Source: Candidatus Eiseniibacteriota bacterium (GTDB lineage: Bacteria; Arandabacterota; Arandabacteria; Arandabacterales; Arandabacteraceae). Taken from it: a stretch of 64,000 nt of DNA. Of the stretch, positions 8,654-45,811 are shown piece by piece. The stretch covers positions 8,466 to 72,465 of the forward strand of contig JBDRNT010000171.1 of assembly GCA_043810925.1 (NCBI GenBank), given 5' to 3'. The position numbers and the translations under genes are program-made. The notes below the pieces were generated by a model. That model was not told the DNA's origin and made no database searches. It worked only from the letters and a program-made list of their open reading frames with translations. The number at the start of each line of letters is the position of its first letter. The stretch's first letter is position 1.

Positions 8654-8785
8654 ATGGTCATCGAAAAGTCATTGCTGATCAGACTGCTGATAGCAGGCTG
8701 GACTCTCATGATAAGCGCATTTTACTACCTGCAGTTTAAGTCCATGCTGAACATGCTTCTCAACAAGGTACTGGAAACCATCTGA
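8654..8785 (+). CDS. Small 43-aa single-pass membrane protein (not in the ORF track)
   Basis: MVIEKSLLIRLLIAGWTLMISAFYYLQFKSMLNMLLNKVLETI*; fills the gap after asnB and overlaps the next start as TGATG. Confidence 0.6.
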   Translation: MVIEKSLLIRLLIAGWTLMISAFYYLQFKSMLNMLLNKVLETI

Positions 8786-10641
8786 TGATCGAACTGGCTT
8801 GTCTCGTTCTCATCTATCTATTGGCGACTGGTCTGGGAAAGATGACGCTACGCTACTTCGGCGTTTCCTTTGAGACCTGGAAGGAGGAGTCCATCTTTTC
8901 GATCGGTCTGGGACTGGGGCTTCTGGCATATGCCGTGTTTGCCGTCGGTATCCTGGGCATTCTTTACACCTGGGCGGTCTGTGCGGTGCTTGTGGTTGCT
9001 GCGATCGCATGCCGGCGGGAGCTAAAGCATACGGTAATGAGGTTGCCCGGACTCTTTCGCAACCTCAAACCGGGGACGCGTCCCAGGGTCATCCTTGCCT
9101 TGACCGCCGTAGTGGTGGTATGCATAGCGATGAACTCCCTGGGAACACTGGCGCCCGTCAGCTCGATGGACGCCCTGGCTTACCACTTCGCAGCCCCCAA
9201 GGTCTACATTGAGCACCACAAGATTATCGAGACCCCCTGGTTACACTGGCATTCCTACCAGCCGTTCACGGTGCAAATGCTCTTTACCCTTGGGATGTTG
9301 CTCCGAAACGCCGCGCTGGGGTCGCTGTTTCATTATGGATTCGGGGTTCTCATTGCCGCAGGGATCGCGGTGTTCTGTCTCCGTTATTTTCCGGGAAACA
9401 CCTCCCTCCTGTCGGTGGCGATCTTCTATACAACCGGTCTCATGACCTGGCAGGCCACATCCGGTTTCATAGATCTGGGGCTTGCGTTTTTCGCGTTTCT
9501 CGCGGTCTTCGGATTCCTCCGGTGGCTGGAGACAAGCCACCGGCACTGGTTGGCGTTGTCGGGCGTGTTCGCCGGCTTTGCCGCGGGATGCAAGACTACG
9601 GGTGGAGTGGTCGTCGTTGCACTGGCGGCCATGCTCATCTGCCGTCTGATGCTTGTGAAAGGAAGATCTGTCTCAAGCGCAGTCAGGGATGTGGGGGTCT
9701 TTGTGAGCCTGGCAATCCTGATAGCCTCGCCATGGTACATCAAGAGCCTCGTTCAAACCGGTAATCCTGTTTTTCCTTTTCTCTATACCATCTTCGGGGG
9801 CAAGAACTGGGACGGCGAGGCGTCCGCAACACTTCGAGGGGCCCTGAGGGTCTACGGCTTCGGCTACGGTATCAAGGAGTTGATCATGGCACCCTGGAAC
9901 ATCACGCTCCGGGGGGAGTCGTTTGACTATGGGCAGTTGGTCGGACCGCTCTATCTTTCCTTCATACCGCTGTCGCTTCTTTATATCAGGAAGAGCATGG
10001 TTATCAGGACCCTGCTGATCTTCTGCGGTCTCGTCTTCTGCGTCTGGTTCAGCCAGTCCCAGCAGATCAGATTTCTGCTTCCCGTCCTGCCGTTCTTGAG
10101 CGTGATAGCGGCATGGGTGATTGTGGATCTCCTCGGAAAGGGTCGATTCCTCAAGTACACCGTGGCTGTGGTTGTCGGGTTGTTCCTGCTCTTCGGTACG
10201 GGGCTCAATCTGATTTACAACTCACAATTCCTGCCCGTGGTCTTCGGTCTTCAACCGGAAGATGAGTTCCTTGCCGAGAAGACCTGGTTCTACGAGGACA
10301 CGAAGTATATCAACGAGAACATCCCTGAAGACAGCAAGGTGCTGGCGGATCTGCGCGGAACCTACTACCTGGACAGGGACTTCGTCCCATGGGGCTATGT
10401 CGAGGTCGGGGAGGATCCACGGGCGGCACTCGAGGCGCTTGGACGACACGGCATTACCCACATCTTTGTAGCCCACCAGAATCGCCTGAGGCAACTGGAT
10501 GTGATCCGCGATAACCTCACGCTGATACGCACAAGTCAAACGACTGTTCTCGGTCACCGGACGTTCTGGCGGGATCCGAAAGCGGTAACCACTCATCTCT
10601 TTGAGGTCAAGAGAACAGCACATCACGCGATGGGAGCATAA
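8785..10641 (+). CDS. Polytopic GT-C-fold glycosyltransferase (PMT_2/ArnT-like, lipid-phosphate-sugar dependent)
   Basis: More than 12 TM segments; APVSSMDALAYH first-loop motif, IDLG, GCK, PWY..GNPVFPF, RFLLP. Confidence 0.75.
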   Translation: MIELACLVLIYLLATGLGKMTLRYFGVSFETWKEESIFSIGLGLGLLAYAVFAVGILGILYTWAVCAVLVVAAIACRRELKHTVMRLPGLFRNLKPGTRPRVILALTAVVVVCIAMNSLGTLAPVSSMDALAYHFAAPKVYIEHHKIIETPWLHWHSYQPFTVQMLFTLGMLLRNAALGSLFHYGFGVLIAAGIAVFCLRYFPGNTSLLSVAIFYTTGLMTWQATSGFIDLGLAFFAFLAVFGFLRWLETSHRHWLALSGVFAGFAAGCKTTGGVVVVALAAMLICRLMLVKGRSVSSAVRDVGVFVSLAILIASPWYIKSLVQTGNPVFPFLYTIFGGKNWDGEASATLRGALRVYGFGYGIKELIMAPWNITLRGESFDYGQLVGPLYLSFIPLSLLYIRKSMVIRTLLIFCGLVFCVWFSQSQQIRFLLPVLPFLSVIAAWVIVDLLGKGRFLKYTVAVVVGLFLLFGTGLNLIYNSQFLPVVFGLQPEDEFLAEKTWFYEDTKYINENIPEDSKVLADLRGTYYLDRDFVPWGYVEVGEDPRAALEALGRHGITHIFVAHQNRLRQLDVIRDNLTLIRTSQTTVLGHRTFWRDPKAVTTHLFEVKRTAHHAMGA

Positions 10642-10645
10642 ACCA

Positions 10646-11650
10646 ATGGCAACACAAGTTCTGGTAACAGGCGGAGCGGGTTACCTCGGATCGGTGCTCT
10701 GCGAACATCTGCTGGCCACGGGTTACAAGGTCACGGTGGTCGACAACCTGATGTATGGACAACACACCTTGTTCCATCTTTGCGCGAATCCGCATTTTGA
10801 GTTTGTACCCGGTGATGCCCGTGACGAGAAGTTGCTTTCGGGACTCGTGAAGAACGCTGACGTGCTTATTCCTCTGGCGGCGGTCGTGGGCGCGACGGCA
10901 TGCGAGCGGGACCCCTGGCTGGCCATGGCGGTCAATCTCGAGGCCATCCGGATGCTCAACAGGCTGCGTAGCCCGGACCAGCTGGTAGTCTTCCCGACGA
11001 CCAACAGTGGTTACGGAACCCAGACAAGCGATGTGTTCTGTACCGAAGACACCCCGCTGGAACCCATCTCGCTTTACGGACGGACCAAAGTCGACGCGGA
11101 GGCTGATCTCCTGGGATCGCCCGGGGTGATTACCCTGCGTCTTGCTACCGTGTTCGGTATGTCTCCCCGGATGCGTCTGGATCTTCTGGTTAACCACTTC
11201 GTTTACGCGGCGGTCACCGATGGTTACATCGTTATCTTCGAGCGGGAGTTCAAACGGAACTACATACACATACGCGACGTCGCAGAATGCTTCGTACACT
11301 GTATAGAACACGCCGACCGGATGGTGGGACGTCCGTACAATGCCGGTCTCGATGCGGCGAATCTCTCCAAGGAGGAGCTGGCACTCAAGATCAAACAGTA
11401 TGTCCCGGACTTCTACACCCACTTCTCCGAAGTCGGAAGCGATCCCGACAAGCGCAACTACATCGTTTCGAACCAGAGGCTTCGTGAAGCCGGGTTCGAG
11501 GCACGGCGTTCGCTGGATGAGGGGATCAAGGAACTCCTGAAGGGGTACCGGATGATGGGACGCGCTCCCTTTAAGAACACCGGATGCGTGCGGGACATCC
11601 CCCGCCATGAATGCCTGATGTCAACAACCGGAGGTTCTCAGGGTGGTTGA
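10646..11650 (+). CDS. SDR resembling Campylobacter Cj1427/WcaG (GDP-D-glycero-D-manno-heptose C4 dehydrogenase)
   Basis: TGGAGYLGS, YGRTK, and segments PTTNSGYG, RLATVFGMSPRMRLDLLVN, RNYIHIRD, DPDKRNYIVSN that match Cj1427 as I recall it; next to hddC/gmhA/hddA. Confidence 0.75.
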   Translation: MATQVLVTGGAGYLGSVLCEHLLATGYKVTVVDNLMYGQHTLFHLCANPHFEFVPGDARDEKLLSGLVKNADVLIPLAAVVGATACERDPWLAMAVNLEAIRMLNRLRSPDQLVVFPTTNSGYGTQTSDVFCTEDTPLEPISLYGRTKVDAEADLLGSPGVITLRLATVFGMSPRMRLDLLVNHFVYAAVTDGYIVIFEREFKRNYIHIRDVAECFVHCIEHADRMVGRPYNAGLDAANLSKEELALKIKQYVPDFYTHFSEVGSDPDKRNYIVSNQRLREAGFEARRSLDEGIKELLKGYRMMGRAPFKNTGCVRDIPRHECLMSTTGGSQGG

Positions 11651-11654
11651 GAAT

Positions 11655-12392
11655 ATGACCGGCTTGAGCGCCGCGATACTGGCAGGTGGGCTGGGGTCGA
11701 GGCTGAGCCCCGTCCTCGCCGGCCGCCAGAAGGTCATGGCCGAGTTCGGGGGACAGCCATTTCTCGCTTACCTCCTGGACCAGTTGGCCGGTGTTGGTGT
11801 GCCCGATGTGGTGCTCTGCACGGGTCATCTGGGCGAGCAGGTGCGCGCTGCCCTTGGCGAGACCCACGGTCCATTACATCTTACGTATTCACAGGAAGCA
11901 TCTCCCAGGGGTACGGCAGGCGCGTTGCGGAGGGCTCTGCCCCTTCTGAAGTCGGATACAGTGCTTGTCATGAATGGCGACTCTTTCTGCGAAGCGGACC
12001 TCGGGGCCTTCTGGACGTGGCATTGCGCACGGGAGGCGGAGGCCTCATTGCTGCTCGCGAGGGTGCCGGATACCGGGCGTTACGGCCGGGTCAGGGTGGA
12101 TACCGACGGATTCATGCTCAGTTTCGGCGAGAAAGACGGGACAACCGGACCCGGATGGATCAATGCCGGGATCTACCTGATCAGCCGCAGCCTGCTTGTC
12201 GACATACCGCCGGATCAGATGGTGTCCCTGGAACGGGCGGTGTTTCCCACCTGGATCGGCCGGCGTCTCTACGGCTACAGGTGCGAGGGCCGTTTTCTGG
12301 ATATCGGTACGCCGGAGACATACGCGGCGGCAGAACGTTTTCTTGAACCATACGCTCCGACATGCAGCGTAGGAAGGGAATGTAATCCATGA
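11655..12392 (+). CDS. hddC: D-glycero-alpha-D-manno-heptose 1-phosphate guanylyltransferase
   Basis: ILAGGLGSRL, GTAGAL, VMNGDS, INAGIY, FLDIGTPETY; heptose context. Alternative GTG start at 11643. Confidence 0.8.
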   Translation: MTGLSAAILAGGLGSRLSPVLAGRQKVMAEFGGQPFLAYLLDQLAGVGVPDVVLCTGHLGEQVRAALGETHGPLHLTYSQEASPRGTAGALRRALPLLKSDTVLVMNGDSFCEADLGAFWTWHCAREAEASLLLARVPDTGRYGRVRVDTDGFMLSFGEKDGTTGPGWINAGIYLISRSLLVDIPPDQMVSLERAVFPTWIGRRLYGYRCEGRFLDIGTPETYAAAERFLEPYAPTCSVGRECNP

Positions 12393-13009
12393 GAGTAGGT
12401 ACTGATTATCTCAGCAGGGTGCGTCAGCACCTGTTCGAAAGTGCGGAGGTCAAGTGCCAGATCGCCGAGACGTGCGTGGAGTCGATTGCGGCCGCGGCCA
12501 ACCTGCTGGCCGACACATACCGGTCCGGCGGAAAGGTGCTCCTGTGCGGTAACGGCGGGAGCGCGGCCGATTGCCAGCACATGGCGGCCGAACTGGTCAA
12601 CCGGCTGACGTCGGACTTCGAACGGCCCGGCCTTCCGGCGATTGCACTCACGACCGATACGTCCTTCATAACAGCATACGCCAACGATTGCATGTTTGAG
12701 GGCGTGTTCGAAAGACAGGTGCAGGCACTTGGAAACCCGGTAGATACCCTGGTCGCCATAAGCACGAGTGGGAACTCGGCTAATGTGCTGCGCGCCATCA
12801 CGGCAGCACAGTCGGCCAATATGCGAACCATCGCCATCACCGGCACCGGCGGACGTCTCAATCGCGTCGTGGATCTGGCCATCTCCGTTCCGAGTACAAA
12901 CGCACAGTGCATCCAGGAGGCCCATCTGGCGATCGAGCATATGCTGTGTCACCTGGTTGAGCGAATTCTCTTCGGTGACGAGGCCCACGGGGAGGATCCG
13001 GCTCTGTGA
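12389..13009 (+). CDS. gmhA: Phosphoheptose (sedoheptulose 7-phosphate) isomerase
   Basis: CGNGGSAADCQHMAAE, LTTDTS, STSGNSAN, IQEAH. Confidence 0.93.
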   Translation: MRVGTDYLSRVRQHLFESAEVKCQIAETCVESIAAAANLLADTYRSGGKVLLCGNGGSAADCQHMAAELVNRLTSDFERPGLPAIALTTDTSFITAYANDCMFEGVFERQVQALGNPVDTLVAISTSGNSANVLRAITAAQSANMRTIAITGTGGRLNRVVDLAISVPSTNAQCIQEAHLAIEHMLCHLVERILFGDEAHGEDPAL

Positions 13010-14076
13010 TTATAAGCAGGACACCCTTCCGGATTTCCTTCTTCGGCGGAGGAACGGATTACCCGGCGTGGTACCGGAAACGGGGAGGTGCCGTGCTGGC
13101 AACCACAATCGACAAGTATTGCTATCTCACGTGCCGATATCTTCCCCCGTTCTTCGAGCACCGGTTCCGTGTCGTCTATTCCGAGAATGAAAGATGCAAG
13201 GAGATCGATGACATCAGCCATCCGGCCGTCCGCCATGTAATGCGGTATCTCGGCATGGAGCGTGGCGTGGAAATCCATCATGACGGCGACCTGCCTGCCA
13301 GGAGTGGAATGGGATCGAGTTCCTCCTTCACCGTGGGGCTCCTTCATGCCCTCTACGCGCTAAAAGGCTATATGCCCACAAGGTTGCAGCTGGCAATGGA
13401 GAGCATTTTCATCGAGCAGGAACTTCTGAAGGAGACTGTCGGATCCCAGGACCAAGTGCTGGCGGCCTATGGCGGTTTCAATCACATATCCTTTCTCGCA
13501 ACCGGCGAGATCTCGATCAAGCCGATCACCATCGCCAGGGAGCGTATCACTGAACTCAACTCGCATCTCATGTTGTTTTATACGGGGATCAAACGCACAG
13601 CCTCGAATCTGGCGGAAACCTACGTCAACGATATCGAGCGCAGGGAACGCCAGCTCGAAAAGATCGGCGACATGGTGGGCCAGGGCATCGCGATCCTAAA
13701 CAGCACTCAGGATATCAACCACTTCGGTGAACTGCTGCATGAGACCTGGCAGGCCAAACGCAGCCTCGGCAAGAAGATATCGAACTCCTGTGTTGATGAG
13801 ATCTACGATCAGGCAATTTCCGCGGGAGCCAAGGGCGGGAAGCTTACAGGGGCTGGCGGCGGCGGATTCGCCCTCCTCTTCGTCCCTCCTTCCCGCCGGG
13901 ATAGCGTGAAGGCGAGATTGAACAAGCTGATCCACGTACCGTTCAAGTTTGAATGCGCGGGAAGCCAGATCATCTTCTTCGATCTCGAACAGGACTACTC
14001 AGCGGAAGAGAAGATCCGCGCCGGCCAGTCGATCGAGGCCTTTAGAGAGCTCAGCCACATACAGGAGGACGCGTGA
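13006..14076 (+). CDS. hddA: D-glycero-alpha-D-manno-heptose 7-phosphate kinase (GHMP)
   Basis: TPFRISFFGGGTD, PARSGMGSSS, GSQDQ, GGKLTGAGGGG. Confidence 0.88.
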   Translation: MIISRTPFRISFFGGGTDYPAWYRKRGGAVLATTIDKYCYLTCRYLPPFFEHRFRVVYSENERCKEIDDISHPAVRHVMRYLGMERGVEIHHDGDLPARSGMGSSSSFTVGLLHALYALKGYMPTRLQLAMESIFIEQELLKETVGSQDQVLAAYGGFNHISFLATGEISIKPITIARERITELNSHLMLFYTGIKRTASNLAETYVNDIERRERQLEKIGDMVGQGIAILNSTQDINHFGELLHETWQAKRSLGKKISNSCVDEIYDQAISAGAKGGKLTGAGGGGFALLFVPPSRRDSVKARLNKLIHVPFKFECAGSQIIFFDLEQDYSAEEKIRAGQSIEAFRELSHIQEDA

Positions 14077-15074
14077 ACGATCATCTGCCCATAACCCGCG
14101 TACTTATCACGGGGATCGCCGGATCGGGCGGGAGCTATCTCGCCGAGCACATCGTCAACGATCACCCGGATGTCGAAGTCCATGGAATATCGCGGTGGCA
14201 CAGCACGACGTCGAGCGATAACCTTGGCGCGATCCGTGACAGGATAACGGTGCACGAGGCCGACCTTCTCGATTTCGGATCGGTGCTTGGGGCGGTCCGC
14301 GCGGCAAAACCCGATGCTGTGTTCCACCTGGCAGCTCACGCTAACGTTCATGCTTCATTCGTGACCCCGAACACTGTACTCAGCAATAACATCATCGGGA
14401 CGAGCAACCTCCTCGAGGCGATCAGACTGGAAGACCTCGATCCCGTTATCCAGATCTGCAGTACTTCCGAGGTATACGGCCAGGTTGACCCGGAGAACGT
14501 CCCGATAAAGGAAGATACACCGATGCAACCGGCCAGCCCCTACGCCGTTTCAAAGGTCGCCCAGGACCAGCTCGGAAGGGTCTATTTCACGAGCTACAAG
14601 ATGCGCATCATCCGCACACGGATGTTTGCATACCTCAATCCCCGGCGTACCGACCTGTTTGCGACATCGTTCGCAAGACAGGTGGCATGGATTGAGCGCG
14701 GACTCCAGCAGGAGCTTGTCCACGGCAACCTCGATTCGGTCCGCACCCTGATTGATGTTCGCGACGCGATGCGAGCTTACTGGGAGGCCCTTCTCCACTG
14801 CCGGTGGGGAGAGGCCTACAACATCGGGGGTACGACCACTATGACGGTCGGTGAGTTCCTGGAACGCCTGACCGCCATGAGCAGAGTACCGGTCCCGACA
14901 CGCTGTGATCCCCGGTTGCTTCGCCCGGCGGATGTGACATTGCAGATACCCTGCACCGATAAGTTCGTGCGTGAGACAGGGTGGCAACCTGTCTACACCT
15001 TCGAGCAAAGCCTGGCGAACTTGCTTGACTACTGGAGGAAACAGGCGGATGCGGCAGCCGAGGCCGCTCTCTAA
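14073..15074 (+). CDS. GDP-sugar 4,6-dehydratase, DmhA/WcbK-like (GDP-heptose)
   Basis: ITGIAGSGGSYL, STSEVYG, SPYAVSK, HGNLDSVRT..DVRD, LRPAD; follows hddA; a canonical gmd lies separately at 45812. Confidence 0.75.
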   Translation: MNDHLPITRVLITGIAGSGGSYLAEHIVNDHPDVEVHGISRWHSTTSSDNLGAIRDRITVHEADLLDFGSVLGAVRAAKPDAVFHLAAHANVHASFVTPNTVLSNNIIGTSNLLEAIRLEDLDPVIQICSTSEVYGQVDPENVPIKEDTPMQPASPYAVSKVAQDQLGRVYFTSYKMRIIRTRMFAYLNPRRTDLFATSFARQVAWIERGLQQELVHGNLDSVRTLIDVRDAMRAYWEALLHCRWGEAYNIGGTTTMTVGEFLERLTAMSRVPVPTRCDPRLLRPADVTLQIPCTDKFVRETGWQPVYTFEQSLANLLDYWRKQADAAAEAAL

Positions 15075-15079
15075 GAGGT

Positions 15080-16042
15080 ATGAGAAACATGGCACTTCCG
15101 AAGATTGCACAGTTCTATCGCTCGCTCTACAGGATTCGACGCGTGGAAGAGGAAATCATCAGGATCTACCCGACGGACAGGGTCAAGAGCCCCGTACACC
15201 TTTCGATCGGGCAGGAGGCGGTTTCCGTAGGAGTGTGTGAAGCCCTGCGCCAGGACGACGTGGTTTTCGGCACCTACCGGGGGCACGCTCTCTATCTGGC
15301 CAAGGGCGGCGATCTGAAGAAGATGATGGCCGAGTTGTACGGGAAGGTCACCGGCTGCGCCCGGGGCAAGGCAGGGTCGATGCACCTTGTCGATACCGCT
15401 TCCGGAATCATGGGGACATCTGCAATCGTTTCAACCACCATTCCCCAGTCGGTCGGTTATGGTTACGCCCTGAAGGTTCAGGGCAGGGACTCGCTTGTGG
15501 CAAGTTTTTTCGGCGACGGGGCAGTGGATGAGGGGGCATTTCACGAAAGCATGAACTTTGCCGCCCTTAAACACGTGCCCGTCGTCTTCATTTGTGAGAA
15601 CAACCTCTACGCCATTCACTCGCACTACCTCAACAGACAGCCGAAGGACAACATCTGCGAGCGTGTGCGCACGTACGGCATGCCCGCAGAGAGGATCGAG
15701 GGAAACGACGTCGTCAGGATCTACGACCGTGTAAAGGACGCTGCGAAGAGGATTCGCAGTGGAGCCTCCGGCCCCATGTTCTTTGAGTGTATGACCTACC
15801 GCTGGAGGGAGCACGTCGGGCCCGGCGAAGACTGGGATCTTGGCTACCGCGGTGAGGACGAGGCTAAGCAGTGGATCGAAGGAGACCAGGTCGACCGCCT
15901 GGGGGCAATGCTTGATCCCGAGGCGAGACGGCGTATGGAGGCGGAGGTGGAGACGGAGATCCGTGAGGCTATTGAGTTTGCGGAACGGAGTCCATTCCCG
16001 GATGCAGAGGAACTCTACACAGACGTTTTCAGGGAGTGTTGA
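15080..16042 (+). CDS. ThDP-dependent E1 alpha-like subunit
   Basis: HLSIGQEA, GSMH, ThDP motif GDGA..ENN, TYRWREH. Confidence 0.9.
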   Translation: MRNMALPKIAQFYRSLYRIRRVEEEIIRIYPTDRVKSPVHLSIGQEAVSVGVCEALRQDDVVFGTYRGHALYLAKGGDLKKMMAELYGKVTGCARGKAGSMHLVDTASGIMGTSAIVSTTIPQSVGYGYALKVQGRDSLVASFFGDGAVDEGAFHESMNFAALKHVPVVFICENNLYAIHSHYLNRQPKDNICERVRTYGMPAERIEGNDVVRIYDRVKDAAKRIRSGASGPMFFECMTYRWREHVGPGEDWDLGYRGEDEAKQWIEGDQVDRLGAMLDPEARRRMEAEVETEIREAIEFAERSPFPDAEELYTDVFREC

Positions 16043-16043
16043 G

Positions 16044-17093
16044 ATGGAACGCACACTGACTTATGCCGATGCGATTCGCGAGGCGACCGAGCAGGAGATG
16101 GCGCGTGACCCTCGGGTGATTGTCATGGGTCTGGGTGTCGATGACCCAAAGGGCATCTACGGTACCACCCTGGGGCTTAGAGACGAGTTCGGACCCGAAC
16201 GCGTCTTCGATACCCCGCTTTCTGAGGATGCGATGACCGGCGTCGCCATCGGTGCTTCGCTCGCCGGACTCCGGCCGATCCATGTTCACCAGCGTATGGA
16301 TTTCCTCCTGCTCGCCATGAACCAACTTGTCAACATCGCCGCCAAGACAAGGTACATGTTTGCGGGGGCCGTATCGGTTCCGATCGTGGTCCGCGCAATC
16401 ATCGGCAGAAGCTGGGGACAGGGTGCCCAGCACTCCCAGGCACTCCATTCATTGTTCATGCATGTCCCCGGTATCAAGATAGTCGCACCGACAACCCCCT
16501 ACGATGCCAAGGGCTGTCTGATCAGGAGCATCAGGGAGCATGACCCGGTGATCTTTGTCGAGCACAGACTCCTGCACAAGTACCAGGAAGGTTATGTCGC
16601 CGAAGGTTCATACGAGGTCCCCCTTGGGAAGGCCCGCGTCCTCGTAGAGGGCAATGATCTTACCATCGTTGGGATTTCCCATATGGCGGTTGAATGCTTG
16701 AGGGCCCAGCGGTACCTCGAGGATGTCGGGCTGAGTGCCGAGGTGATCGATCCCGTTTCTTTGTGCCCGCTCGACATGGACACGATAGCAGCATCGGTAC
16801 GCAAGACCGGAAGAATGCTTGTCGTGGACAACGGGTGGATCACCTGCGGGGCCGGCACCGAGATTCTCGCACAGGTGGTCGAACGCTTTCAGGGCCACCT
16901 GGATGTGCGCGTCCAGAGGATGGGGTTTGAGAGCGTGACCTGCCCAACCACGAGGAATCTGGAAACCGAGTTCTACCCGAATGCACAGACGATAGCGTCA
17001 GGAGCATATGCGCTGGTTCACGACAATCATGAGTCGTGGACGCCTGCGCATGAGGAAGCTCCGGAGATCCTTCAATTCAAGGGGCCGTTCTGA
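16044..17093 (+). CDS. ThDP-dependent E1 beta-like subunit (transketolase pyrimidine-binding plus C-terminal domain)
   Basis: ATG 16044; DTPLSE, GLRPI, GAQHSQ, PYDAKG, DPVIFVEH. Confidence 0.9.
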   Translation: MERTLTYADAIREATEQEMARDPRVIVMGLGVDDPKGIYGTTLGLRDEFGPERVFDTPLSEDAMTGVAIGASLAGLRPIHVHQRMDFLLLAMNQLVNIAAKTRYMFAGAVSVPIVVRAIIGRSWGQGAQHSQALHSLFMHVPGIKIVAPTTPYDAKGCLIRSIREHDPVIFVEHRLLHKYQEGYVAEGSYEVPLGKARVLVEGNDLTIVGISHMAVECLRAQRYLEDVGLSAEVIDPVSLCPLDMDTIAASVRKTGRMLVVDNGWITCGAGTEILAQVVERFQGHLDVRVQRMGFESVTCPTTRNLETEFYPNAQTIASGAYALVHDNHESWTPAHEEAPEILQFKGPF

Positions 17094-18346
17094 TGAAACA
17101 GCAAGACATGAAGTCCGGCGGCAGCGCCACCGCAACCAGGGAGATCGCCGTCCCGTTCGGGACGATGTCGGTCCCCAGAAGAGCGAAGCAGATCATAGCC
17201 GAGGTCCTGACGACCCGGCGAATCTCGAGTGGCAAGTACGTCCGTGAATTCGAAAACAGATTCGCCGAGTTGCTTGGCGTCAAAGAAGCCGTCGCTGTAA
17301 GCAGCGGTACAGACGCAGACGTTCTTGCCCTGGCCGTGCTTCACGATTACGGGGCACAGCGGGGCGACGAGATCATCGTTCCCGCACTGTCCTTTGTGGC
17401 TTCGGGTAATGCCGTGTTCCACGCCGGTTTCACACCGGTCTTCGTCGACATTGATTTCAACACCCTGAATATCGACCCATCCGGGATTGAAGCAGCAGTG
17501 ACGGACAAGACACGTGCGATAATGCCGGTTCACCTGATGGGTAAACCCGCGGAGATGGATCTTATCAGGGACGTCGCCCGGAAGCATGATCTTCGCGTGA
17601 TCGAGGATGCCGCAGAGGCTCACGGCGCTATTTACAAGGGAGAGCCGGTCGGCACCCTTGGCGACATGGGAGCTTTCAGCCTCTACCTCGCACATATCAT
17701 CACCACAGGCGAGGGCGGCGTTGTCGTAACCGACAACGAGGATTATGCGCAGATCCTTCGCTCGCTTCGCTCTCACGGACGTGCCTGCAAGTGCAGGCAA
17801 TGCACGATAAATACAACCTCGGGATACTGCCCGAAGCGGTTTCAGGGCGATCAAGGCGAAGACATGAGGTTCGTGTTTGAGCGTATCGGCTACTCGGCGA
17901 AGATGAACGAACTCGAAGCCGCACTTGGATTGGCCAACCTCGATATCTACGACGAGATTCTGAGCAGACGCCGCCGGAATCTCCAGTATGTACTTGAGCG
18001 ATTCAAGCAGTTCGACCCTTATCTGACAACGATCGAGGAAGGGCCGGACGAGAAGATCGGCCCCCACGCCATCCCGATTGTCGTCGGGCGCGGGGCGTCA
18101 TTTACACGTGAAGCGCTTGCCAACTGTCTTGAAGAGCACGGTATCGAGACACGCACCCTGTTCGCATCCATGCCGACCCAGTGCGCCGGATTCGCCCATC
18201 TTGGTTACCGGCCGGGGCAGTTTCCCAATGCCGAGTACATAGGCATGCACGGTATCCACGTCGGGGTTCACCAGGATCTTGGACGGGAAGAGATGGACCA
18301 CGTGCTGGGGACAATCGGGCGATTCCTCGAGGACAACCAGAATTGA
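17093..18346 (+). CDS. PLP/PMP-dependent DegT-fold enzyme with His at the catalytic-Lys position: probable NDP-4-keto-6-deoxysugar C3-dehydrase (DdhC/RfbH/ColD-like)
   Basis: FSLYLAHIITTGEGG, versus FSFYPSKNLG in the true aminotransferase at 26511; Cys-rich insert GRACKCRQC..CPKRF. Confidence 0.75.
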   Translation: MKQQDMKSGGSATATREIAVPFGTMSVPRRAKQIIAEVLTTRRISSGKYVREFENRFAELLGVKEAVAVSSGTDADVLALAVLHDYGAQRGDEIIVPALSFVASGNAVFHAGFTPVFVDIDFNTLNIDPSGIEAAVTDKTRAIMPVHLMGKPAEMDLIRDVARKHDLRVIEDAAEAHGAIYKGEPVGTLGDMGAFSLYLAHIITTGEGGVVVTDNEDYAQILRSLRSHGRACKCRQCTINTTSGYCPKRFQGDQGEDMRFVFERIGYSAKMNELEAALGLANLDIYDEILSRRRRNLQYVLERFKQFDPYLTTIEEGPDEKIGPHAIPIVVGRGASFTREALANCLEEHGIETRTLFASMPTQCAGFAHLGYRPGQFPNAEYIGMHGIHVGVHQDLGREEMDHVLGTIGRFLEDNQN

Positions 18347-18348
18347 AA

Positions 18349-18422
18349 GCAGCAGGCGGAGCCTTTCGGTATGCAAGCGAATGCCTCTCTTGAGCAAGCG
18401 GACCGAAGGGCAGGCCGGCAAC
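18349..18422. repeat. Palindromic intergenic repeat, family B copy 1
   Basis: gcctttcggt..accgaagggc stem; reverse complement aligns with 57464-57532 (cgcttgctca..aggcattc.cttgc core). Confidence 0.65.
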
Positions 18423-18444
18423 GGTCGGATTAAGGAGGACTGAG

Positions 18445-19446
18445 ATGTACGAAGGCATGAAGGTACTGGTCACAGGCGGCACGGGGATGATTGGAGTCGA
18501 AGTGGTGAAGTTACTGCTGGAGCGGGGAGCAGGCGTCCGCGTCGCGTCGTTGGACGACCCTTCGCGCGCACCTCGAGATGTTGAGTTCATACGCGGCAAT
18601 CTCACGGACTGGGAATTCTGTCAGAAGATCACAAGAGGCATGGACTGCGTCTTTCACCTGGCAGGAATAAAGGGATCCGTCGGCATCGGGAACTCCAAAG
18701 CAGCAAGTTTCTTCGTTCCGCATCTTCTGATGAACACTCTGATGATGGAAGCAGCCCGACAGGCGGGGGCGGATCGTTACCTCTATACCAGCAGTATAGC
18801 CGTTTACCATCCCACCGATGTCTTTGTGGAGGACAGGGCATGGGACGGACCACCCCATCAGACGGACAGGTATGGTGCCTGGGCCAAGCGGATGGGAGAG
18901 CTGCAGGCGGAGGCCTACAAGGAAGAGTACGGCTGGGACAGGATCGCCATAGTGCGGCCCGCCAACGTGTACGGACCCTACGACAATTTCGATTCTAAGA
19001 CTGCGATGGTCGTGCCGGCGGTGATCAGCCGCGTGGCCGCGGGTGAAAACCCGCTGGTTGTATGGGGTGACGGTTCGGCAATACGGGATTTCATTTATGC
19101 CCGGGACTGCGCGGAGGGCATGTTGCTGGCCATGGAGAAGGGGGCGAATTGCACACCGGTCAACCTGGGTAGCGGCAAAGGGGCGTCGATCAGGGAGTTG
19201 GTGGAAGCGGTTGTGGCCGCCTTCGACAACCCGCCCGAGGTGAAATGGGATACAAGCAAGCCGGCAGGCCAGAGCGTTCGTCTGATGGATATGACCAGGG
19301 CCCGCGAGATGCTGGGTTTCAAAGCGCGCACATCGCTTAAGCAGGGCGTACAGGAGACCGTAGCATGGTACCTGGCAAACACCGAACTTGCAGGCAACAG
19401 GTTCAATGTGTTTCACGAGTCAGACTTCATGGCGGTCAAGAGATAG
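18445..19446 (+). CDS. NAD(P)-dependent SDR, GDP-L-fucose synthase-like epimerase/reductase
   Basis: SD aaggagg; TGGTGMIG, RPANVYGPYDNF, VWGDGSAIRDFIY. Confidence 0.8.
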   Translation: MYEGMKVLVTGGTGMIGVEVVKLLLERGAGVRVASLDDPSRAPRDVEFIRGNLTDWEFCQKITRGMDCVFHLAGIKGSVGIGNSKAASFFVPHLLMNTLMMEAARQAGADRYLYTSSIAVYHPTDVFVEDRAWDGPPHQTDRYGAWAKRMGELQAEAYKEEYGWDRIAIVRPANVYGPYDNFDSKTAMVVPAVISRVAAGENPLVVWGDGSAIRDFIYARDCAEGMLLAMEKGANCTPVNLGSGKGASIRELVEAVVAAFDNPPEVKWDTSKPAGQSVRLMDMTRAREMLGFKARTSLKQGVQETVAWYLANTELAGNRFNVFHESDFMAVKR

Positions 19447-19448
19447 CA

Positions 19449-20234
19449 GTGAGAATCCTCACGAGCGGCGCGCTGAGCGGTCTCGGCAAACATCTGTACG
19501 AAAGGTTCGGCGGTCTTGCCTGGACCAGGCAACTGCCGGCCCACGACCGCGAGGAGATCAAGCGTGAAGGCGTTGATGTTGTGTTCCACTGTGCGGCGAC
19601 TTCACGCCGGCCGGTCACCTCGGATGATCTCTATGAGTACATCGCGGACAACGTACTGCTCACGGAGGAACTGGTCTCGGTTCCCCATCGGAAGTTCGTA
19701 TTCGTATCTTCCGTTGATGTCTATCCGTGCGGGCATGAGCCCCGCTCTGAAAACAGTGTGATCGATGTGGACACTGTGAGAGGGATCTACGGCAAGACAA
19801 AACTGATGTCTGAAGCAATAGTCCAGCGGCACTGTCCCGATCACCTGATCCTGCGATGTGTCGCTCTATTAGGCGAACACGCACGTAAGAACAGCCTGAC
19901 ACGGATTCTGGACGACGACTCCTGCACCCTGACTCTCTCAGGAGATTCGCAGTTCAACTACGTTCTCCACGAGGATGTTTCAGAGTTCATAGAGTCTGCG
20001 GTGAAGAACGATGTCCGGGGGATATACAATGTTGCGTCAAGTGAGAACGTGACGCTCTCAGAAGTCGTCGACATCTTCAACAGACGAGTCGATTTCGGAG
20101 CGTACCGTTACGCCATCAGCGATGTTGACAACAAGCGGATAGCGTCGATCTTCCCCGCGTTCAGAAAGACTTCCAAAGAGGTCGTAGCCCGTTTCGCGCG
20201 CGAGCGTGCCGGAAGGAGGCAAAGATGCAGTTAA
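19449..20234 (+). CDS. Short atypical NAD(P)-dependent SDR
   Basis: GTG 19449; ILTSGALSGLGK, VSSVDVY, YGKTKLMSE. Confidence 0.7.
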   Translation: MRILTSGALSGLGKHLYERFGGLAWTRQLPAHDREEIKREGVDVVFHCAATSRRPVTSDDLYEYIADNVLLTEELVSVPHRKFVFVSSVDVYPCGHEPRSENSVIDVDTVRGIYGKTKLMSEAIVQRHCPDHLILRCVALLGEHARKNSLTRILDDDSCTLTLSGDSQFNYVLHEDVSEFIESAVKNDVRGIYNVASSENVTLSEVVDIFNRRVDFGAYRYAISDVDNKRIASIFPAFRKTSKEVVARFARERAGRRQRCS

Positions 20235-21220
20235 AAAACCAAGCCGTGCTGGTAACAGGTGCTACCGGTCTGGTGGGCAGCAATCTGATCAAGCGCCTGC
20301 TCGACGAGGGAGCGAATGTCCGTGCCACAGTACACAGCAAACCGCCTGTCATCGACGATGACAGGATCGACTATGTCCGTTCGGACCTTACGAGAGACGA
20401 GGATTGCCGGGCGGTCGTTGAGGGCCAGCGCTTCGTCTTTATGTGTGCGGCAAGCACTTCCGGTGCGGCCACGATTGCCGCCACTCCGATGGTGCACGTG
20501 GTGCCCAACGTTGTGATGAACACGCAGATGCTCGAGGCAGCATACCAGGCAGGCGTTGAGAAGTTCTTGTGGTTGAGCAGCACGACGGGTTATCCGCCAT
20601 CCAGTTACCGGCCGGTCAGCGAAGACGACATGTTCGACGGTGAACCGTTCGAGAAGTACTTCTTCGTGGGCTGGATGAAGCGGTTTACGGAAGTACTCTG
20701 CCGTATGTACGGGGAGAAACTGCCGAAGCCGATGACCACAATCGCACTCCGGCCGACCAACATCTACGGCCCCAATGATGACTTCGAACCTGCAACCTCA
20801 CACGTCACGGCGGCCTTGATCAGGAAAGTCGTGGAGCGTCAGAGTCCGATCGAGGTCTGGGGCACGGGTGACGACATCCGTGACGTGATCTATATCGATG
20901 ACATGGTGGAAGCCATGGTCAAGGCCATGGAGAAGATCGAGTCGTACACGGCGATCAACATCGGGCTGGGCAAAGCCTACAGCGTCAAGGAAATCCTCAG
21001 TACCTTACTCGAGCAAGACGGTTACCCGGACGCGAAGGTCGTGTTCAACTCGTCAAAGCCGACGATGATACCTGTCCGCTTGATTGACACGAGTAAGGCC
21101 GAGACCCTATTGGGTTTCAAGGCAAAGACAGATCTTGTTGAAGGTATCCAGAAGACCCTTGAGTGGTTCCGGGACGCCAAGAGTGTCCCAAGACCGTGCG
21201 GCGCATTGAGGGAGAAGTAA
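20225..21220 (+). CDS. NAD(P)-dependent SDR, GDP-L-fucose synthase-like epimerase/reductase
   Basis: TGATGLVGS, RPTNIYGPNDDF..SHV, VWGTGDDIRD. Confidence 0.8.
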   Translation: MQLKNQAVLVTGATGLVGSNLIKRLLDEGANVRATVHSKPPVIDDDRIDYVRSDLTRDEDCRAVVEGQRFVFMCAASTSGAATIAATPMVHVVPNVVMNTQMLEAAYQAGVEKFLWLSSTTGYPPSSYRPVSEDDMFDGEPFEKYFFVGWMKRFTEVLCRMYGEKLPKPMTTIALRPTNIYGPNDDFEPATSHVTAALIRKVVERQSPIEVWGTGDDIRDVIYIDDMVEAMVKAMEKIESYTAINIGLGKAYSVKEILSTLLEQDGYPDAKVVFNSSKPTMIPVRLIDTSKAETLLGFKAKTDLVEGIQKTLEWFRDAKSVPRPCGALREK

Positions 21221-21221
21221 A

Positions 21222-22808
21222 ATGAGTGGGCCCAACCTTGCCGTCCACCACCGCCCCGCGAGTGGGATATCCGTGTCACCACAAGCTGACAAACCTGAAG
21301 TCCTGCTGATCCAGCCTGGTGAAGAGACAGACTACTATCTGATCCCGATGGGTTTGCTGTACGTGGCGCAGGCGCTGAGAGAGGCCGGTGTGGAGGTCAC
21401 GATATTCGACATGAGAAAGAGCCGCATCACGGACCTACCGCTGCGCCGCTACCTTTTCGCCGGAATCACCATGATGACCGGGAAGATGATAAAGCATGGC
21501 CTGAGGGCCGCAAGGATGATCAGAGAGTACGATCCCCGGATTCCCATCGTTCTGGGGGGCGTGCACCCATCCATGTTGCCGGAGCAAACACTGCGGCATG
21601 AACTGGCTGATATCGTCGTTGTAGGTGAGGGTGAGGAGACCGCCAAAGAGATTGCGAGGAGCTTGCTTGGTGACGGAGATCTGTCGGAGATCAAAGGCAT
21701 AGGCTACAAAGGCAACGGGAACCCCATCACCATGAACCCGCGCAGAGAATTCATCGATCTGAACGAAACCAGTATGGATTTGCCCCACGATCTACTGGGA
21801 ATCGATTTCCAAGGGGCCCGCGCATTTCCCATAAATACCAGCCGGGGATGCCCTTACCGCTGTGGGTTCTGTTATAACCAGTCCTTCAACAAAAGGAGTT
21901 TTCGCTACAAGAGTGCCACGCGAATCGTCGATGAAGTTGAATACTACATCAAGAAGTACGATATCCCTTCATTCAGCTTCGGCTTTGAAGACGAGTTCTT
22001 CAGCAAACCCAGCAGGGTCCGCGAGATGGCCGACCTGATTCTGAGCAGAGACTTGAAGATCACCTGGGGATCGTTCTGCCGTTTTGACTCGTTTGAGAAA
22101 ATCGACGATCACTCCTTGAAGTTGCTGAAGAGATCGGGGTGCAAATCCCTGTTCTTCGGAGCAGAGTCGGGCTCACAGAGGATCCTCGATGAGGTCATCA
22201 AAAAAGACATCACCACTGAACAGGTGGTACGCGGGGTTGAGAGGCTCAAGAGGGCGGATATCTTCCATCTCGTGAGCTTCATGTGCTGCCTACCGACGGA
22301 AACTCAAGAGGACCTTGATGCCACCTTCGCGCTCATCGACAGAATAGCCGAGAACAACTCGAAACTGTTCATCAATGGAATCTTTGTCTACTTCCCAATC
22401 CCCGGCACACCTCTGTTCGACATGGTAAAGAACGGATACGACCTCGAGTTTCCCGATTGCCTGGAAGGGTGGGCGGAATACGAGATGCCCAGTGCTTCGA
22501 TCTCGCGCATTCCCTGGCACCCGGCCAAGTATGCCAGGCGATGCCGGAACCTCTACCAGATGTCGCTTTATCCCTTTCACCACGATATCACATCCTACGG
22601 CGCGTACAGGCAGTTGACCACTACCCACACCAGCTACCGCCGCTCCTACGTCCATTACCTGATGGCCCGGATGCAACGGTGGCGCTGGAAGAACAGGAAT
22701 CTTGAATTCCCCCTGGAACTCTTGATGTCCGAGAAGATCAGGGAGATGACTCCTGCACTGAGGAGGGGCTACCGCATGGCCAAGAAGGTCCGTGCACACT
22801 TAAGATAA
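21222..22808 (+). CDS. Cobalamin-binding radical SAM protein (class B methyltransferase-like)
   Basis: PMGLLYVA, GGVHPS, GEGEET B12 domain; SRGCPYRCGFC CxxxCxxC motif; GAESGS. Confidence 0.9.
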   Translation: MSGPNLAVHHRPASGISVSPQADKPEVLLIQPGEETDYYLIPMGLLYVAQALREAGVEVTIFDMRKSRITDLPLRRYLFAGITMMTGKMIKHGLRAARMIREYDPRIPIVLGGVHPSMLPEQTLRHELADIVVVGEGEETAKEIARSLLGDGDLSEIKGIGYKGNGNPITMNPRREFIDLNETSMDLPHDLLGIDFQGARAFPINTSRGCPYRCGFCYNQSFNKRSFRYKSATRIVDEVEYYIKKYDIPSFSFGFEDEFFSKPSRVREMADLILSRDLKITWGSFCRFDSFEKIDDHSLKLLKRSGCKSLFFGAESGSQRILDEVIKKDITTEQVVRGVERLKRADIFHLVSFMCCLPTETQEDLDATFALIDRIAENNSKLFINGIFVYFPIPGTPLFDMVKNGYDLEFPDCLEGWAEYEMPSASISRIPWHPAKYARRCRNLYQMSLYPFHHDITSYGAYRQLTTTHTSYRRSYVHYLMARMQRWRWKNRNLEFPLELLMSEKIREMTPALRRGYRMAKKVRAHLR

Positions 22809-22811
22809 ACC

Positions 22812-24251
22812 ATGAACTTACCAAGGAAAATAGCCGCCAACAGCGGTGTCCTGCTCGCAGGCAGGATCGCTACGAGCGCGATCTCGCTCCTCGTGAGCAT
22901 CTGGCTGATCCGGTATCTCGGAAGCATCGGATATGGCAGGTACAGCGTGGTCTTCGCATATCTCACGTTCTTCCGGATACTGACCGCTCTCGGTGTCGAT
23001 CCCATCATCATTAGGGAGATCTCCAAGGGCAATGCGAGGAAAAACGTGCTGATCGGTAATGCGATTCTCATGAAGATGAGCTTTTCTCTCATCGCAGTTC
23101 TGAGTGCGTGTGTGGTAGCACAGTTCATGGGCTACGGCAGCGAGATAAAGCTGCTTATCTATGTCGCCTCATTCAGCATGCTTTTGAGTTTCGGGCGCGT
23201 GTATGTGGACATCTTCCAGGCCAACCTGAAGATCGTTTGGTATACGATAGCCGAACTGGCCGTCACACTGCTTTTCTCAGGGCTTACGTTGATGGTCATC
23301 GCCATGAAGGGCTCGCTGCTTCACTTCGTGCTATTGCAGACGGTCAGGATCGTCCCTCTCACCGTTGCCTATTTCCACTTCTCGAGGAGGATCGCCGACA
23401 GCCGCCCGGTCTTCACACTGGATTTCAGTGTCTGGAAAAGTCTGACCAGGAGTGCCATGCCGATTTTCCTATCGGGGCTCTTCGGTTCGATAAACTTGAG
23501 AATCGATCAGGTCATGCTGTTCAACATGTTGGGTGAGAAGAACCTCGGGTTCTACTCCTCGATTGTGCGAATAACCGAAAGCGTGAATCTCATGCCCGGT
23601 GTGTTGATGGTCTCCATATTCCCTGTGCTCTCCACGGCATTCGTGCAATCGAATGAACGATTCTCAAAGATCTATAATCTCTCCTTCAAGTACATGGGCA
23701 TGATCATCCTTCCTGTTGCGTTCGGAACGACGCTGCTGTCCGGAAGGCTGATCACCATCGTTTACGGAACCGAGTTTCTCCCTGCCGCCACCGCGTTCGC
23801 AATCCTGATATGGTCCGCCGTATTCGTGTTCCTGGGGACCGTGAATTTCAACATTCTGGTCGCTTCGGATCTGCAGAGATACATTCTCTTGTTCAGTGCA
23901 CTCGGCGCTTCCTCAAATGTCGTATTGAATCTGATCTTGATACCCAGGTACGGCATTGTCGGAGCGTCTCTGGCAACGGTGATTTCATACAGTGTTGTGG
24001 GTCTTGTCCCCCAGTACCTGATCAAGAAGACGCGACAGATCACAAAGGACTATATCAAAGCAACGTTAAGACCACTTCTCTGCTCCGCTGTTATGAGCAT
24101 CGGCATACTCTGTTTCTATTCTCTAAACACATTTGTCCTGATAGCACTCAGTGCGGCAGTCTACTTCGCTTTGCTCCTGCTCACAAAAGCTCTTGATGAG
24201 CACGATTTCCGGTATTTCAGGCAGATTGCGCGAAGGCGCTCGGAGACCTAG
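22812..24251 (+). CDS. wzx: Polysaccharide flippase (Wzx)
   Basis: About 14 TM segments; RYLG..GYG, RIDQVML, LNLILIPRYGIVGASLAT. Confidence 0.9.
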   Translation: MNLPRKIAANSGVLLAGRIATSAISLLVSIWLIRYLGSIGYGRYSVVFAYLTFFRILTALGVDPIIIREISKGNARKNVLIGNAILMKMSFSLIAVLSACVVAQFMGYGSEIKLLIYVASFSMLLSFGRVYVDIFQANLKIVWYTIAELAVTLLFSGLTLMVIAMKGSLLHFVLLQTVRIVPLTVAYFHFSRRIADSRPVFTLDFSVWKSLTRSAMPIFLSGLFGSINLRIDQVMLFNMLGEKNLGFYSSIVRITESVNLMPGVLMVSIFPVLSTAFVQSNERFSKIYNLSFKYMGMIILPVAFGTTLLSGRLITIVYGTEFLPAATAFAILIWSAVFVFLGTVNFNILVASDLQRYILLFSALGASSNVVLNLILIPRYGIVGASLATVISYSVVGLVPQYLIKKTRQITKDYIKATLRPLLCSAVMSIGILCFYSLNTFVLIALSAAVYFALLLLTKALDEHDFRYFRQIARRRSET

Positions 24252-26488: not shown

Positions 26489-26510
26489 ACAATATCAACG
26501 GAGGGTTAGC

Positions 26511-45809: not shown

Positions 45810-45811
45810 GT

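Follow-up and report, generated by a model that had tools for sequence, protein, structure and literature searches.

A GDP-heptose gene block with a stand-alone E1-type enzyme pair: a candidate route to a branched nine-carbon sugar

In Campylobacter jejuni, there is biochemical precedent for making GDP-heptose, for oxidising it at C4, for its 4,6-dehydration and for deoxygenating both resulting 4-keto heptoses at C3 (excerpts of PMC10440746 and PMC10680097). Cj1427 is the GDP-heptose C4-dehydrogenase (excerpt of PMC10680097); in vitro, the C3-dehydratase works in combination with Cj1427 and with the 4,6-dehydratase, and HS:3/4 clusters carrying both entry enzymes give both products (excerpts of PMC10440746 and PMC10680097). 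In the route to yersiniose A, YerE and YerF provide a 3,6-dideoxy-4-keto acceptor with a pyruvate-derived two-carbon branch whose ketone is then reduced (PMC9306805), and the thiamine diphosphate (ThDP) enzymes named alphaKADH2 are branchers that use two-carbon or pyruvate units (excerpt of PMC12247030). Here we analysed a 64,000-nucleotide stretch of a Candidatus Eiseniibacteriota genome (contig JBDRNT010000171.1, positions 8,466 to 72,465; hereafter the window), in which a block of 12 open reading frames (ORFs), on the + strand at 10646-22808, brings elements of these systems together. From gene content and comparison with related loci, we lean slightly towards an open-chain 3-deoxy- and/or 3,6-dideoxy-4-C-(1-hydroxyethyl)-heptose as its product.

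Proposed route of the twelve-gene block

The block resembles C. jejuni capsular GDP-heptose modification in its hddC-gmhA-hddA order, which is that of strain HS:5, in having candidates for both entry enzymes and in the predicted C3-deoxygenation of a GDP-4-keto-heptose (excerpts of PMC10440746 and PMC10680097). Unlike the C. jejuni clusters, it has neither a cupin epimerase nor a canonical C4-reductase, and it adds a ThDP pair, short-chain dehydrogenases/reductases (SDRs) that lack the catalytic Tyr, and a B12-binding radical S-adenosylmethionine (SAM) enzyme. In contrast to the C. jejuni C3-dehydratase, a pyridoxal phosphate enzyme, the C3 enzyme of the block has an E1-type Cys loop. Yersiniose is built on a CDP-glucose-derived hexose by a single-chain decarboxylase-family enzyme (PMC9306805), whereas the block would use GDP-manno-heptose and an E1 alpha/beta pair. 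The alphaKADH2 branchers (KbDH-alpha/beta; aldgamycin, avilamycin and paulomycin) share the E1 alpha/beta fold and a proposed two-carbon transfer to a keto sugar, a likeness judged by fold and context; they belong to actinomycete antibiotic clusters (excerpt of PMC12247030), while the block lies in a surface-glycan locus and would offer a heptose acceptor. The genes of the block are as follows.

10646..11650, + strand: SDR1, Cj1427-like GDP-heptose C4-dehydrogenase, predicted to give a 6-OH, 4-keto sugar (PDB 6vo6)
11643..12392, + strand: HddC-like heptose-1-phosphate guanylyltransferase (NF049965, 115 bits, below the cut-off of 300; position among hddA and gmhA)
12389..13009, + strand: predicted GmhA sedoheptulose-7-phosphate isomerase (NF010546, 212 bits; TIGR00441, 184 bits; both below cut-off)
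13006..14076, + strand: HddA-like heptose-7-phosphate 1-kinase (best model NF049969, 141 bits, below cut-off)
14073..15074, + strand: divergent SDR like the DmhA-clade 4,6-dehydratases (T-S-E and YxxxK retained, substrate-site motifs altered)
15080..16042, + strand: stand-alone ThDP E1 alpha of alphaKADH2 fold, proposed subunit of a putative C-C ligase (PF00676; GDG..N ThDP motif; no paralogue in the genome)
16044..17093, + strand: ThDP E1 beta (PF02779/PF02780; 60-72% identity in module loci; likewise no paralogue)
17093..18346, + strand: His-type DegT-family 3-dehydrase resembling E1/DdhC, four-Cys loop present (alignment to 3bcx/3bb8)
18445..19446, + strand: SDR2, Fcl-fold SDR without the catalytic Tyr or the Cys/His pair (motif reading, predicted model)
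19449..20234, + strand: SDR3, short atypical SDR (PF01370; weak RmlD-like PDB match, E 1e-5)
20225..21220, + strand: SDR4, a second Fcl-like SDR without the Tyr, from the clade that is sister to SDR2 (motif FVGWMK; tree)
21222..22808, + strand: B12-binding radical SAM enzyme outside the module-specific clade (PF02310 and PF04055)

Spacing within the block runs from -10 to +5 nt, with the sole exception of 98 nt between degT and SDR2; for SDR3 we took the start at GTG 19449, where the ORF finder placed it at 19365.

The block's output would be a branched, GDP-linked sugar of nine carbons, destined for a Wza/Wzc/Wzx-type surface polysaccharide. By analogy with the C. jejuni homologues, the Cj1427-like enzyme would give a 4-keto sugar and the DmhA-like enzyme a 4-keto-6-deoxy sugar, probably in parallel. 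The His/Cys E1-type DegT enzyme would strip the 3-hydroxyl with a general ferredoxin or flavodoxin, which we suggest because the block holds no E3 gene. Following the KbDH-type precedent, the stand-alone E1 alpha/beta pair would move a pyruvate-derived acetyl to C4, and the Tyr-less SDR pair, going by gene pairing, would reduce the acetyl ketone to a 1-hydroxyethyl branch. The product would be a yersiniose analogue, one carbon longer and manno-configured; C4 acetylation, ketone reduction and any methylation in the block are steps that we infer. A sequence-only reading of the window had proposed a GDP-heptose origin, 3-deoxygenation, a ThDP-dependent two-carbon branch and SDR reduction, and these steps survive in our best reading, on co-occurrence, the lack of E2 and the C. 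jejuni in vitro precedent. Its twelve genes are all present in the order that it gave, its family assignments hold, and wzx (PF01943) does follow the block, 3 nt downstream.

SDR1 matches 6vo6, which we take to be the structure of Cj1427, best in the PDB (365 bits over 311 residues, E 3e-108). For GmhA, HddA and HddC, their own NCBIfam models rank best or second best, every one below its curated cut-off; Trinickia homologues of the HddA protein (53-57%) are annotated as heptose-7-phosphate kinase in their source records. A GmhA paralogue (47%) lies on contig C94. No gmhB was found among the block ORFs; a GmhB-like HAD protein elsewhere, on contig C104, scored 130 bits against a cut-off of 149.6 and adjoins two genes taken by eye for heptosyltransferases. 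The DmhA-like protein is 45-52% identical to more DmhA-like homologues and about 65-75% identical within a subgroup with altered motifs (L003, L008, L010, L146, L154), whose members are mostly accompanied by Cj1427: L008 and L010 have it in view, the genome of L146 carries it at another place, and it was not seen for L003 and L154. At other loci, L-2-hydroxyglutarate oxidase genes stand by the Cj1427 orthologue (L084 23382-24584, L138 13492-14703, L142 13426-14625), a neighbourhood that fits recycling of the Cj1427-type co-product.

The ThDP pair has the marks of an alphaKADH2 enzyme: an E1 alpha/beta fold with a ThDP motif in a nucleoside diphosphate-keto-sugar cluster, without E2. E2 (PF00198) was unmatched in the window's genome, which is 91.7% complete, and matched in 10 of 14 control genomes. 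The pair as part of a pyruvate or other 2-oxoacid dehydrogenase complex was rejected on this ground, and we favour a sugar brancher because of the missing E2 and because hddA stands in view in 14 of 17 close loci (see below). If the pair did another task, such as supplying acetyl groups or precursors or forming a C-C bond on a different sugar, the SDRs could reduce C4 and the block could yield unbranched 3-deoxy- or 3,6-dideoxy-heptoses as in C. jejuni HS:5 and HS:11. The C. jejuni route needs only a dehydratase, the C3-dehydratase, an epimerase and a C4-reductase (excerpt of PMC10440746), the predicted fold of SDR2 resembles Fcl and the C4-reductases, and the split transketolases of sister loci could simply supply sedoheptulose-7-phosphate. 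This outcome is nevertheless unlikely: the E1 pair, or a split transketolase in its stead, is retained in the module across phyla, E1 without E2 cannot yield acetyl-CoA, and the Tyr used by C4-reductases is missing from SDR2 and SDR4.

SDR2 is proposed as the putative reductase of the branch ketone. Tyr occupies the canonical column in none of its 120 homologues, while Lys76, Ser116, Tyr121 and Lys148 are nearly invariant. Its predicted model (mean predicted local distance difference test score, pLDDT, 91.7) retrieved Fcl/GME-type folds alone, GDP-fucose synthases nearest, and the fold search gave no functional lead. SDR2 and SDR4 both lack the YxxxK Tyr and the Cys/His epimerase pair of the Fcl/GMER epimerase-reductases. 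SDR4 is 57-59% identical to its homologues in L147 and L148; SDR3 orthologues are limited, among module loci, to L002 (48%) and L154 (41%). A scan of plasmids and phages with SDR2 gave matches of 29-38% at most.

The DegT protein carries His where E1 has its active-site His and 3bb8 has Lys, and its Cys loop aligns with the CxC..C of E1, the two features that mark E1/DdhC (RfbH). Its best NCBIfam model is RfbH (276 bits against a cut-off of 423), and no protein of the window's genome scores above that cut-off. The sequence-only reading had allowed a DdhC- or ColD-type 3-dehydrase; of these, the alignment identifies the E1/DdhC type. An E1 enzyme needs a reductase, and E1-type enzymes transaminate in the absence of reductant. 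With no E3 gene in the block and perosamine synthase as the top whole-protein PDB score, the enzyme might instead be a 4-aminotransferase, giving a 4-amino-heptose alongside a 3-hydroxy branched sugar. His in all counted module DegTs, the Cys loop in 7 of 7 subfamily members seen, and an active-site stretch that matches E1 and ColD best make this the least probable of the alternatives that we weighed, and a remote one.

Erwiniose had been named as the model for the product, with no worked-out route to it known; PMC9306805 publishes one. ErwI, ErwJ, ErwE and ErwF act on CDP-4-keto-3,6-dideoxy-D-glucose, ErwE joining 4-hydroxy-2-oxopentanoate to the acceptor (PMC9306805), and an excerpt of PMC12247030 agrees. 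ErwE coupled this donor to a ketone analogue and rejected pyruvate; the physiological substrate was not used (PMC9306805), and the route is supported, short of full reconstitution. Like the route proposed here, it uses ThDP carboligation to extend a 3-deoxy-4-keto sugar at C4 and then a reduction; it differs in its CDP-hexose acceptor and aldolase-made C4 donor (PMC9306805). No gene type of the Erw route occurs in the block, be it an aldolase, an acetaldehyde dehydrogenase, a CDP gene or a YerE-type enzyme. Among the 54 window ORFs scanned, we found no YerE-like single-chain ThDP enzyme, pyruvate aldolase or acetaldehyde dehydrogenase. We rejected erwiniose as the product; the block carries GDP-heptose genes and no CDP-acceptor genes. 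By our comparison of structures, the 'hydroxyethyl' carbons of erwiniose would be ring C5-C6, with C2 gluco, whereas the product of a heptose route would have a manno C2 and carry its branch free.

Recurrence of the module in two forms

From a scan of species genomes with E1 alpha, 80 of 456 relatives were retained. Seventeen of these loci are at 54-72% identity, and hddA was in view in 14 of them and in none of the remaining 63, so the arrangement of the block is not due to chance. The module DegT was likewise seen in 14 of the 17 (His-type in 14 of 14); where hddA or DegT is missing, a contig end cuts the locus. A close E1 beta occurred in 13 of 401 Omnitrophota-phylum genomes, which added twelve module loci; plasmids of Solidesulfovibrio magneticus and Azospirillum added others. 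In the phylum of genome G007, G007 was the sole carrier of E1 beta among 401 genomes, and an E1 beta scan of viral contigs gave no match. Cultured carriers of the module are S. magneticus RS-1 (plasmid pDMC1) and Azospirillum lipoferum 4B, both with the c7 form described below, and Skermanella aerolata, with the Tyr-less SDR form.

The core that recurs across phyla consists of the GDP-heptose genes, the Cj1427-like oxidase, the DmhA-like dehydratase, E1 alpha/beta and the His-type 3-dehydrase. His-type DegTs occur in 33 other module loci and fall into at least four sublineages, mutually 23-38% identical. Lys-type DegTs stand by a more distant E1 subclade (L016, L149), in L151, where no ThDP pair is in view, and as additional genes in L004 and L146.

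Many modules also hold a B12 radical SAM enzyme of one clade, c7, whose members are 40-81% identical; HpnJ was the top NCBIfam model, below cut-off, for 2 of 2 members tested. The c7 clade matches 4 of 72,556 plasmids, all four of which have a Cj1427 orthologue. Among 32 genomes, c7 was present in 19, SDR2 orthologues (at least 47%) in 9, both in none and neither in 4 (Fisher p 2.5e-5, which overstates the case, the genomes having been picked by ThDP-gene or hddA similarity and being mostly incomplete and non-independent). A 37% match in the c7-positive genome G009 and a 39% match in G253 were left out of the SDR2 count, which also tells against our reading. The core module thus appears to recur in two exclusive forms, one with the c7 radical SAM enzyme and one with Tyr-less Fcl-like SDRs. 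In the tree, SDR2-type loci usually have one SDR2 plus one gene of the sister clade (SDR4 or c14).

By gene content, the window is of the second, Tyr-less SDR form. We found c7 nowhere in its genome, and its block lacks the Fcl-like gene c6 of the other form. The six genes at its front are closest to their counterparts in c7-positive genomes (SDR1 at 70-78% identity), and its DegT and SDRs to those in c7-negative ones; the same mix is apparently present in genome G169, spread over two contigs. In both L154 and L155, a double set of E1-type genes occurs together with two SDR2-like genes, of which one directly adjoins the more distant pair, an arrangement that favours the proposed route.

We also noted variants of the module. 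L154, L155 and L018 combine several Tyr-less SDRs with a pair of ThDP systems, either two E1-type sets or E1 together with a split transketolase, which suggests doubly branched or longer sugars. E1 alpha and beta are apparently fused in L138, L142 and L143, as a single ORF of 623-700 aa. The c7 gene of L008 (8717-11353) has an insertion of about 370 residues with apparently intein-like ends. Methylthioadenosine phosphorylase and mtnA lie near c7-type modules in L085 (17400-19665, annotated in Azospirillum) and L159 (8941-11669, where they and an aldolase were identified by eye), and perhaps salvage the 5'-deoxyadenosine of the radical SAM step.

Several points weigh against the route that we favour. 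SDR2 and SDR4 lack the canonical acid, and their reductase activity is putative. We found no E3-type gene among the block ORFs, where no CDP gene was found either; the search for E3 was confined to the block. LhgO, which would recycle the Cj1427-type co-product, was not found over cut-off in the window's genome. L147 and L148 combine SDR2, SDR4 and E1 with no His-type DegT in view. The DmhA-like protein, which the sequence-only reading took for a 4,6-dehydratase, retains the catalytic residues and is divergent, with scores of 192 bits for the DmhA-type structure 7us5 and 187 bits for Rmd (2pk3), a reductase; its Skermanella homologue scores 359 and 199, and we therefore regard the window's protein as a divergent offshoot. 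A short GT2 glycosyltransferase (c11, at least 46%) present in 19 of 45 locus records of the module has no orthologue in the window's genome; because of this, and because a GT-C-like gene abuts the block, the sugar-transfer route presumably differs here. Finally, we know of no sugar of the proposed structure.

The radical SAM gene and the surrounding locus

The radical SAM enzyme of the window is 24-26% identical to c7 and forms a separate clade in a quick tree. Its PDB matches are weak (best named OxsB, TokK and AprD4, 39-47 bits). Its closest relatives are 50-80% identical; the context comparison covered ten at 31-45%, six of them on fragments under 12 kb (L082, L083, L119-L122, L173-L176); they lie mostly in glycan loci, and none is by hddA or a ThDP pair. 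A metagenome scan gave one locus, at 31%; across 17 module genomes the best match was 37%, on a contig other than the module's; and relatives turned up in 4 of 401 genomes of the Omnitrophota phylum and in 4 of 251 of the Planctomycetota phylum, in no case near the module. On these contexts we rejected it as a module gene, and the sequence-only reading, which had named a lack of co-occurrence with the block elsewhere as a refutation, is largely contradicted on that point. Some B12 or radical SAM gene does lie in or beside the module in 6 of 9 SDR2-type genomes, from three unrelated clades; three of the six belong to a clade whose tested member is KedN5-like.

The enzyme could still be a non-orthologous replacement of the c7 enzyme, making the product a caryose-like carbocycle. 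Its gene ends the block with gaps of 1 and 3 nt, and neither it nor E1 alpha was found in 17 other genomes of the host phylum; the front six genes are nearest those of c7-positive genomes, and a 29-30% relative adjoins a c7-type module (L141). The distance from c7, an HpnJ model ranked eighth here and top for both c7 proteins tested, the absence of c6 from the block and the fact that SDR2-type loci never have c7 make this distinctly unlikely. The sequence-only reading instead had the enzyme methylate C7, giving an octose with a C10 skeleton like that of erwiniose. GenK methylates C-6' of gentamicin X2 (excerpt of PMC4039129), and the B12 or radical SAM genes of the six SDR2-type genomes, three in the KedN5-like clade, point the same way. 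Against it stand the unrelatedness of those three clades, the abundance of such genes in these genomes (up to 8 matches in each), the 0 of 10 relatives near hddA or a ThDP pair, and the CDP route of erwiniose with its C4 donor (PMC9306805), which would leave at best an isomer. C7 methylation has no support and is very unlikely. Methylation at some carbon may nevertheless occur: most likely, the enzyme is a C-methylase whose target is some carbon of the block's sugar or else a different residue within the repeat unit.

The block is embedded in a locus of about 48 kb that, in a profile scan of the window ORFs, holds an SLBB/wza-like gene, wzc, a nusG-like gene, wzx, many glycosyl- and methyltransferase genes and an initiating sugar transferase gene. 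Features at its margins are as follows.

3616-5856: wzc
8785..10641, + strand: membrane GT-C-like protein, possibly a transferase or polymerase and a context gene (weak PMT_2 match, E 1.9e-5, below cut-off; about 11 hydrophobic segments), ending 4 nt before the block
22812..24251, + strand: Wzx flippase (PF01943), starting 3 nt after the block

By its sequence, wzx marks this as a Wzx/Wzy-type polysaccharide locus. Since neither E1 alpha nor the radical SAM gene turned up in the 17 other phylum genomes, we regard the block as lineage-specific cargo. A NusG-family gene at 6051-6653, between wzc and the biosynthetic genes, is likely a dedicated antiterminator. At 25436-27674, a Gfo/Idh/MocA oxidoreductase and a Lys-type DegT recall 3-oxidation and 3-amination towards diamino sugars; a heparinase II/III-like protein (34841) and a carbamoyltransferase (44052) lie farther downstream. 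An intact gmd (45743-46924) is followed by a GDP-fucose synthase gene (about 46900-47810) frameshifted near 47090, either genuinely or through an assembly error.

The sister form and caryose

We found hddA in 6 of 33 Trinickia genomes, all six with c6, a split transketolase, His-type DegT, hddC and Cj1427, and five with c7 in front of the module. The L110 kinase and c7 protein are assigned in their source records to T. caryophylli, the reclassified caryose producer (excerpt of PMC6337347). The T. caryophylli module shares hddA, hddC, a Cj1427-like gene, His-type DegT and a two-gene ThDP enzyme with the window, and differs in four features that the window lacks: c7, an Fcl-like enzyme that has the Cys, ABC export and a split transketolase. 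The E1 alpha clade was not found in Trinickia, where the best match (45%, G048) lies beside flagellin genes.

By Fischer conventions, the name of caryose would imply manno C2, deoxy C3, an inverted C5, a C6-OH as in D-glycero, a two-carbon unit on C4 and a new C7-C8 bond. We matched these features to GDP-heptose, His-type DegT, c6, Cj1427, the ThDP pair and c7; c6 retains its Cys, has lost the His and has an eroded cofactor motif in several members. Other conversions of sugars into cyclopentanes have also been linked to radical SAM enzymes (Cds, HpnJ), and a 2022 review called the origin of caryose unknown. The c7 enzyme would probably close the same acetyl intermediate, and we consider it probable that the c7 module is the caryose route. 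Two caveats attach to this link: transketolases usually move hydroxyacetyl and could merely supply sedoheptulose-7-phosphate, and a DHQ-synthase-like gene elsewhere in T. caryophylli could encode a rival cyclase. That gene belongs to a separate CDP/RfbH/YerE-like/aldolase cluster, which fits caryophyllose (candidate L167 12324-19780 and L168 4953-12087: aldolase, SDRs, DHQ-synthase-like, GT2, ddhA-like, rfbH, wzm/wzt, YerE-like).

The bicyclic ten-carbon sugar bradyrhizose, whose 11-gene cluster is uncharacterised (excerpt of PMC4743980), could by analogy derive from a heptose and a ThDP-transferred unit; two short motifs of the bradyrhizose gdh primers matched nothing relevant in the loci collected here.

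We tentatively suggest, as a possibility short of even odds, that the two forms fork at GDP-3-deoxy-4-C-acetyl-heptose: c7 would form the C7-C8 bond to give caryose, whereas Tyr-less Fcl-fold SDRs would reduce the ketone to an open-chain nine-carbon sugar, in the window possibly methylated further and deoxygenated by an Fe-S E1-type enzyme on a GDP-manno substrate. Searches of the literature, which excluded most subscription journals, returned no description of this module. Each chemical step has precedent; what would be new is their combination, in which a pyruvate dehydrogenase-like ThDP pair branches a heptose for a surface glycan. The comparison also gives a complete, stereochemically consistent candidate route to caryose and a marker pair, c7 radical SAM versus Tyr-less SDR, that would predict a ring-closed or an open-chain product from sequence. 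New targets for enzymology emerge as well, namely ThDP ligases that would accept ketones, a radical SAM clade that would form carbocycles, and SDRs devoid of the catalytic Tyr. If the fork is true, the T. caryophylli cluster would be the long-missing caryose pathway, the Tyr-less Fcl-fold reductases a new class, and the open-chain product a nine-carbon sugar that has never been isolated.

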